Positions 18,001 to 42,000 of a stretch of 64,000 nucleotides of DNA are shown here, piece by piece. Each line of letters opens with the position of its first letter. Within the stretch, counting starts at the first letter, position 1. Made by a program: the position numbers. Origin of the DNA: Bdellovibrionota bacterium (GTDB lineage Bacteria; Bdellovibrionota; UBA1018; CAIPTA01; JAALKR01); contig CBDBMJ010000001.1 in the NCBI GenBank assembly GCA_965207455.1, positions 576,001-640,000 of the forward strand, written 5' to 3'.

Positions 18001-21000
18001 CATCCACGGCACGATCGATTTGATCCGTCGTGTGAGCAGCTGAAATTTGTACGCGCACTCTGGCCTCTCCCTGTGGAACCACAGGATAGAAAAAACCCAC
18101 CACATAAATTCCCATCTTTAACAAATCCTGGGCAAAGACCTGAGAAAGCCGAGCCTCACCAAGCATAATAGGTATAACAGGATGATGACCACTCTTACTA
18201 GTAAAACCAGCTTCTTGTATGCGAGTACGAAAAAGCTTTGTATTGTCCCATAGTCGCTGTCGTAATTGCTTCCCTATGCTGGAATCGCCTACCATATCAA
18301 TGGCAGTTAAACTGGCCATGACCACGGGAGGAGTAATAGTATTGGAAAAAAGATAGGGCCTAGCCTTTTGCCTAAGCATGGCAATGACCTCATTACTAGC
18401 ACTCACAAAACCACCTGAGCTTCCTCCCAGCGCTTTTCCTAACGTGGAGGTAATAATATCCACACCGTCCAAGCCAAAAAACTCATGGGTGCCTCGCCCA
18501 TTTTCCCCCATAATTCCCGTGCAATGGGAGTCGTCCACCATTACCATGGCTTGGTACTTCTTTCCTAAGGCACAGATTTCTTTAAGGGGAGCAATCGTGC
18601 CGTCCATACTAAATGCACCGTCAGTTACAATAAGACGAAAGCGATGGTTCTTAGCCTCCTTGAGCTTGTTTTCTAAATCACTCATGTTGCGATTTTTATA
18701 GCGGTAGCGCTGAGCTTTACACAGACGTATGCCGTCGATAATGGAAGCGTGATTGAGAGAGTCGGAAATAATAGCATCCTCCTTATTCAACAAAGCCTCA
18801 AAAACACCTCCATTGGCATCAAAGCAAGAAGAGAAAAGGCAAGTATCCTCCATCCCTAAAAAATTGGAAATTTTCTTTTCCAACGATCGATGTATATCCT
18901 GAGTTCCACAAATAAAACGAACACTGGAAAGACCATAGCCGTATTGATCTAAGCCCCTATGGGCAGCCTCCACTAAGCTGGGATGATTGGAAAGCCCTAA
19001 ATAATTGTTGGAACAGAAATTTAATACCTTCCTGTTGTTTACACGAATTTCTCCACCCTGCGGGGACTGTATCTCCTGCTCTCTTTTATATAAACCCTGA
19101 GAATCTATTTCTTTTAATCTTGCATGGAGATGGTCTTTAAATAGTCGCATTTTTAAGGTTACCGGAAATCAATAAGTACTTTAGAATAGGTACGGATCTT
19201 TTCTTCAAACAAAGGAGGATGGAACTCATGGAAGGGAATCGTTCCCTTACCTTCGTTTAAAATATACTTCCATATACTCTCCTGCACTCCATTACTTTTG
19301 TCCTCTAAAATTTCTTTTGTTTGCTCCCATGTGGAAAAAATCCTTCTACCAATTATGGGAAAAATTCTCTTTCCCGATTTAATATACTGCTCAAAGGAAG
19401 GGATTTCCAAAGCACCACTGGAGACTCCAAATAATACAATATTACCACCACGGGCACTTCCCACTAGAGCTTGGAGGAAACTAGTGGGGTGTCCGCTCAT
19501 TTCTAAGCAGTAGTCGGCTCCAATGCCGTCGAAATAATCTAGAACTGCTTGGCCTGTGGCATCTTTCGCACCCGTAGTAAGGGGAGCCATTACATGGTTG
19601 GCACCCATTTGCTTGGCCTTCTCTCCATTCGCCTTATTCGGTTCCACACAAAGTATTTTTTTTGCTCCTAAACTACGAGCCACTAAAACAGAAAATAAAC
19701 CAATAGCACCACAACCAAAGATGGCTATGTTTTTTCCCTTCAACGACGCTCCTTCAAAAGGCAAACAAGCGTGAACAGCGTTGCCAAAAGGCTCTTGAAT
19801 AGCTCCCACCTCAGGACGAATTTTATCCAAATCTGTGGGCCATAAAGTATTGGCAGGAAGCTTTACCGATTGTGCAAAACAACCATGAGCTGTAACACCA
19901 ATAATGCGATCCTTTAGGCAAACATGGCGATTATTATTTGCACAAGCCGAACATTCACCACAATATAGATGGCTTTCCGTGCTTACTATTTCTCCTATAC
20001 GCAGCCCTCCTGCGCGTTTTACATTCGATCCAAGAGCAGTAATTTTTCCTAACATTTCATGACCAGCAATACGGTAGTGGAACCTTTCCCGCTCTAGGCT
20101 GCTAAGAATGGACTCTTTAAAGATTTTGCGAAACCAAATACCCTTATCTGTACCGCATACTCCTCCAAAAATAGGAGCTACAAGTACAGCATTAGCGTCG
20201 CTGGGATTTTGGGACTCCTCTAAACGGGGAGCTTCTACGTCTCGGGAAACATAGCCCTTGGTGGTGGACCAGTTTTTGCGATTTACCTCCAATACAATGG
20301 CCTGCATGGCTCCGTTCTATCATATTTTACCTATTTTAATGAATAATAGCGTGTATTTTCAATAAAGTATTGCAGTGCGCTATTAAATTGACTAAAATAG
20401 TAGTATATGGGTTTGGGGATCACATTTAAGCAACAAAGCAAAGAGACTCAGTCGGGTTCTGCCATTTTAATGGTGATGGTCTTAGGTTTATTTATATCTA
20501 GCCTTTCCTACCTTTCCCTTCGAAAGTATCAGATTCATTTAGGGTCGCAAAAAACAGCGGAAGCTCGACAAACACTGCACATGATCCATACAGATATTCG
20601 AGGTGTATTGGGAGACACGCAATCTTGCACAGAGACAATAAAAAAAATTGCCATTTCAGAGGTAAGTAGCAAACTTCTTCCATTTATTAAAGGTTCTGGT
20701 GGGCAGATACTCTACCGGGTTAATAGGCCAGATAGCACTGGAACAACAATCACTGAACTGCAACTCTCCAAGCTTACTCCTATCCCGGGTACTACTAGCT
20801 CCATGGCAGAACTCTCTATCTTTTTTGAAAGGAAAAATAGCACTGGTCTTGAACTTCCTTCCTTTCGAGCCAGAGATATTAAAATTAAAATAGATCATCC
20901 ACCTCTTAATGTGACTCAACTTGCTCTCGGGAAATACCACACATGTGCGTTGTTTACTAATGGAAGGATGAAGTGCTGGGGCGGTGGTAGCGGAGGGAAT

Positions 21001-39000: not shown

Positions 39001-42000
39001 AAAGGTAAAATAATATCTTCGGCAAACTCCAGTGCTCTCAACAATAAAACATCTTGTATGATGGGTGTTGGTTTTCATAATGAATCTAAAACTGGTGTTT
39101 GCACCCAAAACGAAACTTGTCGTATTGAAGTTATTGGACTCGATCGTAAAAGAGTTTGTGAATGGGGTAGGGGAATTTGCATATATAGTTGTAGCAATGG
39201 TACTTGGATTAAAACAACAAACGTTTGCGAAAAGGAAATATTAGAAATTTTGTCCTTATAGTAGAAAAATATGGATAAGCGAGGATTCTAATCATGAATA
39301 AAATGAATCAGCAATCGGGTACTTCTTTGATCAGTGTGATGATAGCTGCAGTGATACTGGCGATAATTTCACTGTTTGCCATAAAGCTTCAAGAGAATAT
39401 ACTCAGTGGGCAAAAATATGTGGAGCGAAGATATTCCGTACAGGAAATCTTTGAGGATATTCGTACATTTATGGGTAATGCAAGAGTTTGTAGGAAAAGT
39501 TTGGAAGGCTTGAGACTGCCTACTGCCTCTGTTCCTCAAATAAAAGATGTTAATGGAGATATGGTATACGAAGAAAATGCTTTTTATGAAAATGGAAATA
39601 TTGAGCTTAGCTCTATAGCTCTTTCTAGACTCTACCCGGAGTTTCCTGGTTCCAATAATGGCTTAGCTGATTTAACATTAACATTTCTTCCAAGAGCAAA
39701 CGCTCTTGGGTCTGAATTTGTGGGCACCTTTCATCCTAGAATAATTCGTCTTTCTGTAGAATTAGACCCCAACAATGGAAATAGCATAAAAAACTGTATT
39801 AGCATTGCAGGGACAAACGATGCGAATTGGCAGTATGGAGCCAATGAAGATTTATACTATATGGGTAATTTTGTGGGGATAGGAACCAATGCCCCTCGTT
39901 CAAGATTGGACGTTCGAGGAAATATTCGAGTGGATGGAGCAATGGACGTTGATGAATTAGTTACGAATGGTGCTATGTATGTGGGATCTGCGGACGCACT
40001 TGTTTGTTCGAATACTACGGAAGGAACTCAGCGCCACAGAATCTTTAATGGTGAAAGTTCTATGCAGTTCTGTAGCAATGATAGTTGGAAAACTATGAAA
40101 GATATTTGGCAACAAGATGATTTGTTTATATATGCACCTCTTACTAGGAGTGTGGGTATTGGAGTTAATGCTCCCAATGTGAAATTAGATGTAAAAGGTA
40201 GTAGTCGGTTTCAGGGCACTGTAGCCATGATCGCGTCTCCGGGTTCTTCTTTGGGATTAGTGGTGCGGGGAAAGGTTCAAATTGCTCAATCCTCCTCCAG
40301 TGCCAATGCTATTTTAGACAGGGCATCAACAACTAGTAGTCTGGGCGTGAAAGGAAATGTGAAAATAGAAGAAGCCACTAGAGGAGTATTGTGGTTCAAA
40401 GAAAGAGCTACAAATGTACGCTGTGATAATTCTAAAAAAGGGACCATACGAAGTAAGAATAGAAAATTACAATACTGCAATGGAGGTGCTTGGAAAACAC
40501 TAAAAACAAAGAGAATGTTAATCATAGAGCAAATTGAGAGTGGTTTAAACTATTCTTGTGCAAGAGTTACTAGCCGTAATAGAACTACAGCAAAATGTTG
40601 GGGTTCTAATTTTTGGGGGCAGTTGGGCATAGGGAAATCTGGATTTTATAATCCTGTTCCTAATACAGTCTTGGAAAGGGGAATACCAGAGGATAGACTT
40701 TCCAGTTATCTTGATAATGTTACGGAAATTTCTTTAGGTTATAACCATACTTGCGCAATAGCAGGTACAGCTAAAAAAGTTTATTGTTGGGGGAGTAACG
40801 ATAAATATAAATTGGGGGCAGGGTTCAATGAAAGAAATAGTACGGGTGAGATTGAGTTTAAGGTTAATCCTGTTTTAGTATCAGGTGTAGCCTTTAACCG
40901 TGATGTGGATAAAATATCTGTAGGTCACAGTCATAGTTGTGCTGTGAAAAATAAGGAAGTTTATTGTTGGGGAGCCAATAATCATGGTCAGATCGGCAAT
41001 GGAACGGTTACTGAATTTGTGGAAGTTCCCACTAAGGCAACGGGCATTCATAATGCAATAGATGTATTTACTAGTGAGTCCTTTACTTGTGCAAGGTTAA
41101 GTGATGGTAGGGCAAAATGCTGGGGGTCGAATTGGTACGGTCAATTGGGTAATAATGATGACCAGTATTGGAAAAGAGGCAGCTCTATTCCCATTTCTGT
41201 AAAAAATCTTAGTGGTATAGAACAACTCACCTTGGGTTCACGCCATGCTTGCGCTCGATTAATAGACAAAACAATGTGGTGCTGGGGAGATGGAGAAAGT
41301 GGGCAATTGGGCAATGGTGTTCTCACTCTCAGCAATCTTCCCGTTCAGGTGCTTTTAGAAATAAGTCCTGTAAGTGTTTCTCTTTCTGGAGTTACCCATA
41401 TTTCCGCTGGTCATCAAACTTGCGCTGTTATAGGGGAGACAGGCATAGCTATGTGTTGGGGACTCAATCGACAAGGTGAGCTTGGCAATGGATCAAGAAC
41501 AATAAGCTCTCTTCCCAGCAAAGTAGCTGGTCTTACAAAGGTATCAAAAATTTCAGTGGGGTATCACCATACCTGTGCAATTTCTACTGAGACCGTTAGT
41601 GGTGAGGAGAAAGGAAACACAGTTGCTTGCTGGGGACTGAATACTCATGGTCAACTGGGAACGGGGTTGACCACTGTACGCAATAGCTTCTACCCCACAT
41701 CTGCCCTTCTTTTATTTAAATCTTCGCCATAATTTAGTGGAGACCTCCAATTAGATCGATGCATTAAGTTTATTTGAATTTCAAAGCTGTAAGCATCTAT
41801 TTTGCTTTTGACATACACCTTTTTGTGGGTTAATCTTTATCAGAGGTTATCAGAGATGGATTCTCAAAACATACAAAAATCCTTTATTTTCAATGGGTTA
41901 TATCTTTGAGTAGGGCAGAATGGGAGAGTTTCATTAGGAATGCCCTTGAAAACCGGCAATAGGCAAATGAGATAGATTTCAAGTACACCCTATCGGAAAA

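Follow-up and report, generated by a model that had tools for sequence, protein, structure and literature searches.

Six candidate pilin-anchored proteins with MAT-like stalks and RCC1 propeller heads

The type IVb minor pilins CofB and TcpB join a pilin domain to large beta-rich C-terminal domains and form a homotrimer at the pilus tip, where they initiate assembly and bind partners. Minor (pseudo)pilins of the GspK/PilX type lack Glu5, which fits a top-most subunit, and PilY1, itself no pilin, provides a beta-propeller at the pilus tip. Modular type IV pilins, where a pilin module at the N-terminus is followed by extra functional domains proposed to be tip-exposed, were described by Raynaud et al. 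(2021, PNAS; PMC8179133); the table of that survey includes six single-protein architectures with IPR012902 followed by RCC1 repeats and an IPR012902-IPR030392 (S74) architecture of 29 proteins, these pilin-RCC1 and pilin-S74 entries having been selected by passing the N_methyl signature and never studied. The minor pilin PilX2 of Nanosynbacter lyticus TM7x (Saccharibacteria, a monoderm Patescibacterium) carries a heptabladed RCC1 propeller, and its deletion lowered host binding from 10.6% to 4.6% according to a 2024 bioRxiv preprint (PMC11623550). The mosaic adhesive trimer (MAT) fibres of Bdellovibrio bacteriovorus, a multi-gene family with variable tip domains, combine a Sec signal and a beta-rich N-domain of ~130 aa with a trimeric stalk, as described by Caulton et al. 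(2024; PMC10769870). The general design of a pilin joined to RCC1 or S74 is thus already known, and the first-pass annotation of this locus went too far in proposing pilus-borne RCC1 adhesins as a new class.

A duplicated four-gene block

The locus lies in a 64-kb window, by which we mean the whole stretch of DNA analysed, from a probable relative of Bdellovibrio, and comprises the following genes, given in window positions.

20407..23088, + strand: g560, type A fibre gene, ORF of 893 aa; pilin-like N-domain aa ~15-166, RCC1 propeller ~167-640, C-terminal stalk ~657-893
23254..28080, + strand: g561, type B fibre gene, ORF of 1608 aa; N-domain aa ~15-187, stalk 188-435, RCC1 propeller ~436-760, Cys-rich domain ~761-886, more RCC1 blades to the C-terminus
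28093..30591, + strand: g562, type C fibre gene, ORF of 832 aa; N-domain 28093-28662, stalk 28663-29424, RCC1 propeller 29425-30588
30623..32038, + strand: g563, type D gene, 471 aa; RCC1 propeller after a lipoprotein-type signal (…VVTFMSSC)
32802..35414, + strand: g565, type A' fibre gene, 870 aa; paralogue of g560 with identical domain order
35886..36359, + strand: small HTH_3 protein, 157 aa (Pfam HTH_3 E 1.8e-7), between A' and B'
36556..39261, + strand: g568, type B' fibre gene, 901 aa counted from GTG (true start possibly later); N-domain, stalk aa 200-439, RCC1, Cys-rich C-terminus
39294..41732, + strand: g569, type C' fibre gene, 812 aa; paralogue of g562
43265..45592, - strand: type D' gene, RCC1 lipoprotein of 775 aa (signal …LLLIFLNAC); inverted paralogue of g563

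Six + strand ORFs of 812-1608 aa thus each combine an N-domain of ~170 aa with RCC1 propellers, and the earlier description of a six-gene cluster with a prepilin-type motif, helix and RCC1 repeats was borne out in position. RCC1 Pfam families are far over cut-off in all six (E 2e-48 to 3e-19 in g560; 19 RCC1_2 stretches in g561) and start at aa ~167 in g560 and g565 and at aa 410-490 in the other four. A stalk module of ~240 aa is also common to the six (profile A2: E 1.2e-84 at aa 657-892 of g560, 9.6e-105 at aa 188-435 of g561, 4.8e-89 at aa 637-869 of g565 and 1.5e-106 at aa 178-427 of g569), placed after the propeller in type A and before it in types B and C. The D-type proteins are strong RCC1 matches (E 1.9e-98 for g563, 2.9e-172 for D'), and neither pilin domain nor stalk is present in g563. 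The HTH_3 protein could have a regulatory role or could have been inserted here; the best promoter-like site of g568 (36426-36453) is of a kind not commoner than in shuffled sequence.

Pairwise comparison indicates that the cluster is one four-gene block A-B-C-D, three fibre types and an RCC1 lipoprotein, duplicated once, with D' as the last member of the second copy. Identity is 51.5% over the full length between g560 and g565 (blastp), 44% between g561 and g568, 52% between g562 and g569 and 40-46% between g563 and D'. Types A, B and C share 25-36% identity with one another; their N-domains match at blastp E 2.7e-10 to 9e-17, so the likeness is paralogy and not chance. The description of the six as interchangeable is doubtful in the light of three old types duplicated as a block. 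Within the paralogue pairs, anchor, stalk and head have diverged alike (46-56% identity), and there is therefore no hint of faster evolution in the heads, as swappable adhesins might show.

A pilin-like anchor on a MAT-like stalk

In all six proteins a hydrophilic leader comes first and closes with [QE]-S-G, ahead of ~22 hydrophobic residues. Position +1 is V, S, A or T and never Phe, and +5 is S, M, I or G and never Glu; Phe1 and Glu5 are absent from all eight N-domain copies of the genome, which agrees with the motif first reported for the six. Aligned with a 189-aa stand-alone copy (alignment A1), the six N-termini reach 41% mean column identity and are invariant at S23, G24, V30, R61, I71, R72, C81, I97, G102, Y106 and S125 (g562 numbering). 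Pfam N_methyl falls exactly on the motif in four of the six (previously noted for three of four tested), below its cut-off of 21.2 bits (17.8 bits at aa 27-50 of g568, 15.9 at aa 4-29 of g569, 12.2 at aa 13-36 of g561, and 9.8), with no match at all in g560 and g565; an NCBIfam scan of the six genes found no pilin family.

At E <= 1e-3 the A1 profile matched 2,324 representative protein clusters, of which 567 reached E <= 1e-10. The matches cover the whole domain, and full-domain homology (E down to 1e-27) extends to proteins whose prepilin motifs are canonical and pass Pfam. Among the 145 top relatives, counted without own-genome P0001-P0005 and with own-genome P0007, 137 have Gly(-1), 103 have Phe or Met at +1, 123 have Leu at +3 and 84 have Glu at +5; Glu5 is thus lost in 42% with Gly(-1) retained, and positions +11, +14 and +19 repeatedly hold small residues. 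N_methyl, scanned in the 116 relatives within the size limit, reached E <= 1e-3 in 53 and passed the cut-off in 40 (hand counts), and 17 of 22 family members at 20 homologue loci have G-x-x-x-x-E. The closest RCC1-bearing relative, P0006 (1535 aa), shares the stalk (E 5e-59) and keeps Glu5 ('QLG/MSLIET', the slash marking the predicted cut site). Seven of eight A1 matches to PDB sequences are type IV pilins in register, at E of only 0.05 to 8, and hhalign with the PilA of the same genome (E 2.3e-4) gives an in-register alignment of 52 columns that starts at Gly(-1). The profile matched 43 of 127 genomes of the class at E <= 1e-5; the 71 of 126 given previously may reflect a different threshold. 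Because most members of this large family carry the canonical G/F-[ST]-L-[IV]-E prepilin motif, the N-domain is, on sequence grounds, a genuine type IV pilin-like module homologous to bona fide prepilins, and this claim of the first-pass annotation now has much stronger evidence behind it.

The AlphaFold2 model reported earlier was reproduced for aa 1-200 of g562, with a helix at 23/26-75 followed by a seven-strand sheet (mean pLDDT 73 with 7 sequences, 87 with 116). Foldseek again returned no pilin at E <= 0.001 for the N-domain models, giving NTF2-like noise alone. In a VIA search of 48,161 chains, pilins made up 20 of the best 50 matches listed, led by XcpV/GspI (Z 6.2, rmsd 3.1, 85/89 residues), EpsI (Z 5.4) and GspK (Z 5.2, core only), all weak matches in the range (Z <= 6.2) that the tool itself rates as middling or common. 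The label GspK/PilX-like therefore fails as a statement of membership, the T2SSK domain being absent and the nearest fold being of the small GspI type. CofB and TcpB resemble the window's proteins in the way they work and are not relatives by any test used here: no Pfam CofB match occurs in the window's genes, VIA Z is 3.4, and language-model scores of 0.78-0.79 are leads only.

The stalk consists of two VGIGTxxPxxxLxVxG / C…G.QRY…FCNGxxW units. Profile A2 matched the Bdellovibrio MAT fibre Bd2133 (PDB 8ond) at E 1.8e-6, MYRF at E 7.8e-4 and three further MAT entries at E 0.017 to 0.042, which by profile comparison makes the stalk a homologue of the triple-beta-helix stalks found in MAT fibres of Bdellovibrio and in the tail fibres of phages. 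A homotrimer prediction for the g562 stalk scored 0.78 (best control 0.00), with at least 92% of contacts shared among three runs and partner pLDDT of at least 79; in the calibration, which used two copies and not three, 20 of 30 solved pairs and 1 of 23 single chains attained this mark, and the pass may be owed to likeness to solved fibres. In vivo, the stalk would turn the fibre protein into a homotrimer. The stalk module, its predicted trimer, the MAT kinship and the block duplication all go beyond the first-pass annotation.

Compared with the described systems, the window's proteins differ from the modular pilins listed in PMC8179133 in failing the N_methyl signature, in lacking Phe1 and Glu5 and in the MAT-type stalk between anchor and propeller. 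With PilX2 they share large size, the RCC1 propeller, a non-canonical signal peptide and origin in a bacterium that attaches to other bacteria; compared by description alone, PilX2 lies in a pilin locus and is composed of pilin and propeller only, no trimeric stalk being reported in the preprint as consulted (PMC11623550). They stand nearest to the non-S74 subgroup of MAT fibres, with a pilin-like anchor in place of the Sec signal and beta-rich N-domain (PMC10769870, in the part available). A1 gave no match to the MAT N-domain, which reads '…LTYQGRI.KSDG…' in probable Bdellovibrio genomes, and the MAT fibre paper lacks the word 'pilin', while its consulted portion mentions no RCC1 tips. What is new is the union of pilin, MAT stalk and RCC1 in one protein and a single fibre chassis served by two alternative anchors.

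A proposed filament-tip fibre and its alternatives

The observations are that the anchor is homologous to prepilins and the stalk to MAT fibres, that the heads are RCC1 propellers and that the block is duplicated. We consider it rather probable that the six form trimeric, MAT-like fibres which carry RCC1 heads on a pilin anchor, probably displayed at a type IV filament tip. The anchor would comprise the leader ending in Gly, an alpha-1 helix of ~50 residues and a small disulfide-stapled beta-sheet head, and one to three seven-bladed RCC1 propellers would be the ligand-binding heads. Prepilin peptidase would cut after the conserved Gly, and three anchor helices would form the first, top layer of the filament, as in the trimeric minor pilins CofB and TcpB, with the major pilin polymerising below. 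Sitting atop the filament, the fibre would be carried out through the secretin by the pilus tip, showing its propellers to another cell, and retraction would draw both cells together. Tip location, an adhesin role and use of a type IV pilus are plausible, and PilX2 of TM7x offers a precedent; the loss of Glu5, here and in relatives where Gly(-1) hardly ever varies, agrees with a place at the tip and would be explained if the top-most subunit can do without Glu5. Counting against this proposal are the missing Phe1 and Glu5, the N_methyl scores under cut-off, the weak fold matches, the lack of pilus genes beside the cluster and at most homologue loci, and the even divergence of anchor, stalk and head; the secretin channel may also be too narrow for a trimer with 3 to 9 propellers. 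The earlier interpretation as a whole is partly supported.

A less probable, still substantial alternative is that the proteins are MAT-like surface fibres outside any pilus, the N-terminus being a signal anchor that stays uncut or a domain that takes another route of processing and export, such as the piston action of a T2SS pseudopilus or cleavage by a dedicated signal peptidase, with the fibre ending on the surface or in vesicles. Classical MAT fibres, with the same chassis, a Sec signal and another N-domain, do so with no pilus link known from the portion consulted (PMC10769870). The cluster itself adjoins no pilus gene, the nearest being pilB and pilT ~52 kb upstream (contig positions 544071 and 545597), in agreement with the distance noted before, and at 18 of 20 homologue loci the family member has no pilus gene at a distance of two genes or less. 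The proteins lack Phe1 and Glu5, minor pseudopilins of the T2SS are their best fold matches, the genome holds a complete-looking T2SS cluster with pseudopilins of its own, and Peptidase_S26 (signal peptidase I) genes adjoining homologues at two loci might point to another processing route. Against this, with a plain anchor, 137 of 145 relatives would not have kept Gly(-1), nor would most of them have the complete GF[ST]L[IV]E motif, and in a diderm cell an inner-membrane anchor cannot put a fibre outside. Two family members in a genome of the same class (locus L041) directly adjoin pilB, pilT, pilC and two pilA-type genes, and in a genome of the same order (locus L033) one is followed by two pilA-type genes. 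The window's own genome encodes PilB, PilT, secretins, a PilA-type pilin and three Peptidase_A24 (prepilin peptidase) genes; a PilY1 family search gave zero matches here and equally in every control genome, and so carries no weight.

The arrangement of the block raises a third reading, in our view unlikely, in which A, B and C supply one chain each to a mixed tip complex, comparable to the GspI-J-K or PilV-W-X heterotrimer, and the duplication yields two alternative tip complexes. Type IV filament tip complexes usually contain three or four distinct minor pilins, and A-B-C(-D) was copied and kept together as one unit whose members are about equally diverged (44-56%). The differing stalk order in A and in B/C, however, makes a common three-chain stalk awkward, a single-type stalk is confidently predicted as a homotrimer, and the S74/MAT-type fibres solved to date are homotrimers (PMC10769870, as far as consulted). 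Convergence, with a hydrophobic N-terminal helix and beta-sheet as common features of ordinary secreted RCC1 proteins, would account for the Foldseek noise, the common-range VIA scores and the sub-threshold N_methyl matches; it is already disfavoured, and we rate it as very improbable, given the full-domain homology to canonical prepilins and the alignment of real pilins in register from the cleavage site.

RCC1 genes elsewhere in the genome

RCC1_2 repeats occur in 27 open frames genome-wide, close to the 28 genes first counted. The other RCC1 genes are mostly lipoproteins, and the pilin anchor, with the function proposed for it, would therefore account for only part of this RCC1 expansion. 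As a further link to pili by gene order, the same genome encodes an unrelated RCC1 protein of 1456 aa, whose N-terminus is of the GspK style ('EKG/LILILMSIL', without Glu5), directly upstream of two canonical minor-pilin genes.

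Organisation of the fibre gene cluster

The six giant pilin-like RCC1 genes that the first-pass annotation placed in a single cluster are correctly located plus-strand open reading frames encoding proteins of 812–1608 aa. They form three pairs of paralogues, types A (g560/g565), B (g561/g568) and C (g562/g569), with full-length identities of 51.5%, 44% and 52%, respectively, and identities across types of only 24–36%. Two further genes, g563 and a minus-strand gene, both encode RCC1 lipoproteins (type D) and are 40–46% identical. Given three paralogue pairs and a paralogous lipoprotein pair, the cluster therefore represents a four-gene block, A-B-C-D, duplicated once. 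The second block (A' to D') has its D' gene in inverted orientation, with an HTH gene separating A' from B'. The genes of the cluster other than the six fibre genes are as follows.

30623–32038, plus strand: g563, RCC1 lipoprotein (type D)
35886–36359: HTH_3 protein between A' and B', without counterpart in the first block
42555–43244: HATPase_c_4 (RecG-C-like) ORF between C' and D', without counterpart in the first block
43265–45592, minus strand: RCC1 lipoprotein (D')

Anchor, stalk and propeller have diverged about equally within each paralogue pair (46–56% identity), with no sign of heads evolving faster than anchors between paralogues. A promoter and terminator scan returned sites no commoner than in shuffled sequence. 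The g563 leader (…NSSGMSLVAVMIVV…) is similar to the pilin-type one but meets a lipobox after 14 hydrophobic residues, and reads as if a pilin domain had been deleted.

The only other members of the anchor family in the 2.38-Mb genome are a 189-aa stand-alone copy (C1:1334427–1334996) and a 439-aa copy on contig 3 (G000:C3:325965–327284; locus L043:9765–11084). In the 439-aa member, the S-G motif occurs only at about residue 70, and the stretch before it contains a Cys/Trp motif resembling that at the C-terminus of g561 and g568; the gene resembles a read-through from an upstream gene, or a fusion with that gene's end. It is followed by two pentapeptide-repeat proteins.

The pilin-type anchor

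All six proteins open with a hydrophilic leader whose last residues are [QE]-S-G, followed by ~22 hydrophobic residues, the S-G being invariant in all seven aligned copies of the N-terminal domain (N-domain). Direct pilin signals in these genes are weak. Position +1 holds V, S, A or T and never Phe (or Met), position +5 holds S, M, I or G and never Glu, and Pfam N_methyl scores 9.8–17.8 bits in four of the six, below the 21.2-bit cut-off, with no match in the other two; an NCBIfam search of the six genes identified no pilin family.

The family as a whole settles the matter. When the seven N-domains were turned into a profile and scored against 1.84 billion representatives, 2,324 proteins matched at E ≤ 1e-3 (567 at ≤ 1e-10), with matches spanning the whole 190-residue domain; the phylum of relatives was inferred from the taxa of Atlas clusters. 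Among the top 145 relatives, aligned without the own-genome sequences P0001–P0005 and with the own-genome copy P0007 kept in, Gly occupies position −1 in 137, Phe or Met position +1 (79 and 24, respectively), Ser/Thr position +2 in 116, Leu position +3 in 123 and Glu position +5 in 84, and the family consensus is FSLVEVLVAAGLLGILALG. N_methyl was found at E ≤ 1e-3 in 53 of 116 relatives scanned with Pfam, 40 of which reached the gathering score (hand counts). Glu5 is likewise kept in P0006, the nearest RCC1-bearing relative, and G-x-x-x-x-E is present in 17 of 22 family members from same-class genomes. The prepilin-type N-terminus proposed in the first-pass annotation is thus borne out by the family, and since the relatives keep the prepilin motif, the genes in the window represent a derived branch within a family of bona fide prepilins. 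Identification of the N-domain as a genuine pilin-type module is, at the level of sequence, well supported.

Nearly all PDB matches of the sequence profile were pilins and aligned in register, although at E-values of 0.05 to 8. The hhalign comparison with the genome's own PilA covered 52 columns from Gly(−1) (E 2.3e-4), and that with its GspI-like pseudopilin only the first 36 columns (probability 5.6%). The best language-model look-alikes of the N-domain were Bdellovibrionota hypothetical proteins with N_methyl (0.93 and 0.91), and clusters of PilV, TcpB and CofB (0.78–0.80) provide leads only.

The fold of the anchor, taken alone, is only suggestive of a pilin. An AlphaFold2 model built with 116 sequences (pLDDT 87.1) predicts a helix at residues 26–75, a short helix at 78–85 and seven strands; Cys81 and Cys181 are (nearly) invariant in the family. 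Structural search against representatives with VIA-align placed XcpV/GspI on top (Z 6.2, rmsd 3.1, 85/89 residues), with EpsI (Z 5.4) and GspK (Z 5.2) among further matches, all of modest Z; pilins filled 20 of the best 50 rows, or 22 of 50 with a shallower model. Foldseek searches of both N-domain models against the PDB yielded no pilin at E ≤ 0.001, only NTF2-like rows.

GspK-type tip subunits are exceptions to the rule of Glu at +5, and the combination of a near-invariant Gly(−1) with frequent loss of Glu5 would be expected if the subunit were still cleaved but topmost in its filament. The earlier description of these proteins as GspK/PilX-like holds for the absent Glu5 and fails for the T2SSK Pfam domain, which is absent from all six genes; the genome's own GspK-like gene matches T2SSK_1st (E 2.2e-5) at 25.6 bits, just below the 26.2-bit cut-off.

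A MAT-type stalk and alternative mounts

All six proteins share a stalk module of ~240 aa composed of two units, VGIGTxxPxxxLxVxG and C…G.QRY…FCNGxxW (47% mean column identity), which in types B and C separates the anchor from the propeller and in type A comes after the propeller. A profile of this module matched in the PDB the Bdellovibrio mosaic adhesive trimer (MAT) fibre Bd2133 (8ond, E 1.8e-6), three more MAT entries and the S74-containing MYRF (7.8e-4), and the stalk motif directly follows the anchor in roughly two-thirds of the top relatives in the family. When three g562 stalks were modelled together, they were predicted to form an intertwined trimer with a score of 0.78, against 0.00 for the best control, with at least 92% of contacts agreeing between runs and partner pLDDT of at least 79. 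In the two-copy calibration of this score, 20 of 30 solved pairs attained the mark, as did 1 of 23 single chains, and the g562 result may reflect likeness to solved fibres. Taken together, these results support a trimeric stalk of MAT type.

Of the 116 relatives, 35 have at their C-terminus Peptidase_S74, the chaperone that trimerises phage fibres; Gp53-like, Shufflon_N, TSP1 and Hint domains occur in single members and RCC1 in only one. One relative combining anchor and S74 matched MAT structures (8ol4, E 2e-13; 8oml, E 1e-12). Another, P0083 (metagenome, 651 aa), carries a pilin-like anchor, a Shufflon_N match (E 1.2e-18) and a C-terminal S74. Shufflon_N corresponds to the constant part of PilV, the tip adhesin of conjugative pili, and P0083 thereby provides a link, by domain content, between the anchor family and PilV-type tip adhesins.

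The window's proteins thus resemble MATs in a stalk that is homologous to solved MAT fibres and predicted to be trimeric, and differ from them at the N-terminus, where MATs have a conserved ~130-aa beta-rich N-domain directly after the Sec signal and the proteins studied here have a pilin-like anchor instead. Each of the 21 MATs described is reported to have this type of conserved, beta-rich domain behind the signal peptide (Caulton et al. 2024, PMC10769870); how it anchors the fibre is left open in the available text of that paper, which raises a possible link to type IV pili and in which the word 'pilin' is never used. The possibility that the classical MAT N-domain is itself the pilin-like domain was ruled out, as the N-domain profile matches none of 16 long stalk/S74 ORFs from probable Bdellovibrio genomes, 11 of which have a Sec-type signal followed by '…YQGRI…' (more fully '…LTYQGRI.KSDG…'). 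The anchor is, by contrast, present on shorter fibres of these genomes (467 aa, E 2e-20; 578 aa, E 2e-14), one of which adjoins long MAT genes. One stalk chassis is therefore found on two alternative N-terminal mounts. A full-length fibre model detected fibre genes in 310 of 374 genomes of the phylum.

Peptidase_S74 was detected neither in the six genes nor anywhere else in this genome (94.7% complete), whose pilin-type fibres are all RCC1-headed or headless. All six genes have tandem RCC1 repeats of the kind that build seven-bladed propellers, with WD40_RLD, RCC1 and RCC1_2 identified in each (Pfam E 5e-40 to 7e-212), and PDB matches include UVR8, HERC and RCC1. As the RCC1 heads occupy the tip position in types B and C, only the non-S74 (NS74) MAT pattern is fitted.

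Proposed pilus-tip display and RCC1 adhesins

Display of the six fibres on a pilus tip, with a role in adhesion, is on balance the reading we favour, with modest confidence. It draws on the pilin-type anchor, and trimeric minor pilins at the tip are a known mechanism (CofB, TcpB). The main rival, which we consider rather unlikely, is that the fibres are displayed on the surface independently of a pilus. Gene neighbourhoods bear on both readings: no filament-machinery or other pilin gene is present in the window, where the cluster adjoins only housekeeping genes; PilB and PilT lie ~52 kb from the cluster; and a pilus gene within two genes of a family member is absent from 18 of 20 homologue loci. 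In the remaining two, family members sit next to pilus genes: in L041 two members immediately adjoin pilB-pilT-pilC and a pair of pilA genes, and in L033 one member is followed by two pilA-type genes. The genome encodes three Peptidase_A24 proteins, and a search for the PilY1 family gave no match in this genome or in any control genome, so that its negative outcome carries no weight.

Two of the Peptidase_A24 matches (C1:1819807–1820133 and 1823960–1824286) have the same score (74.8 bits) and E-value and lie ~4.2 kb apart near a PilA-type gene at C1:1816395; the prepilin peptidase region was probably duplicated recently. In two of 20 same-class loci, a signal peptidase I (Peptidase_S26) gene adjoins a pilin-type member (L025:2814–3395, L028:7724–8269), which hints at a possible alternative processing enzyme.

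The first-pass annotation had also proposed a new class of pilus-borne RCC1 adhesins. That claim is overstated. Modular pilins were defined by Raynaud et al. (2021), and the supplementary table of that study already lists pilin-RCC1 (six single-protein architectures) beside pilin-S74 (29 proteins). PilX2 of the saccharibacterium TM7x has already been studied: a 2024 preprint describes it as a minor pilin that has a non-canonical signal peptide and bears a heptabladed RCC1 propeller, and reports a drop in host binding from 10.6% to 4.6% when it is deleted. The RCC1-headed fibres parallel this only studied case and so hint at convergent RCC1 cell-to-cell adhesins. Searches of the literature on RCC1 with Bdellovibrio and on the MAT family revealed no description of a pilin-MAT-RCC1 protein, and the value added here is the connection of modular pilins, MAT fibres and the RCC1 pilus adhesin.

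Fusion of the stalk chassis to a pilin-type anchor, seen in thousands of protein clusters, gives a concrete idea of mounting, with the fibre on the pilus tip and recognition coupled to retraction, and bears on the recognition and capture of other cells by predatory and epibiotic bacteria. In a broader and more doubtful proposal, which we advance only tentatively, Bdellovibrionota and perhaps other bacteria-attaching bacteria would use one phage-like family of trimeric recognition fibres on two interchangeable mounts, a Sec-exported MAT N-domain or a dedicated type IV pilin domain on a retractile pilus tip that would couple partner recognition mechanically to retraction; in this lineage RCC1 propellers would have wholly replaced S74-capped tips, and a complete tip assembly, which may be mixed, would be specified by the conserved A-B-C(-D) block and would exist here as two alternatives. 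The six proteins are also natural examples of the size of cargo that a pilin can carry.

RCC1 genes number 27 open frames by Pfam and 24 by regular expression in this genome. The function earlier suggested for the RCC1 expansion would extend to only part of it, as most other RCC1 genes encode lipoproteins or Sec proteins, so that RCC1 serves in this genome as a surface module of general use, attached by several kinds of anchor. A 1456-aa protein encoded outside the window (G000:C1:280936–286990; L057:1936–7990) has two or more RCC1 propellers and a GspK-style N-terminus (…EKG|LILILMSIL…) without Glu5, and does not belong to the anchor family described here. Its gene is immediately upstream of two canonical minor-pilin genes (195 and 355 aa, N_methyl above the cut-off) and is, by gene order, an independent association of RCC1 propellers with pilins. 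A homologue search with its residues 1–470 retrieved only the protein itself and one repeat-level match.

The window also holds, at ~7200–16700, a stretch of low GC content (32–37% vs ~40%) that includes several ORFs without any family in addition to the following genes, and may be a defence or mobile island.

7205–8071, minus strand: SocA/Panacea and MqsA antitoxin-like gene
9247–10473, plus strand: C-5 cytosine DNA methylase
13517–15745, minus strand: subtilase
15735–16697, minus strand: AAA ATPase, overlapping the subtilase
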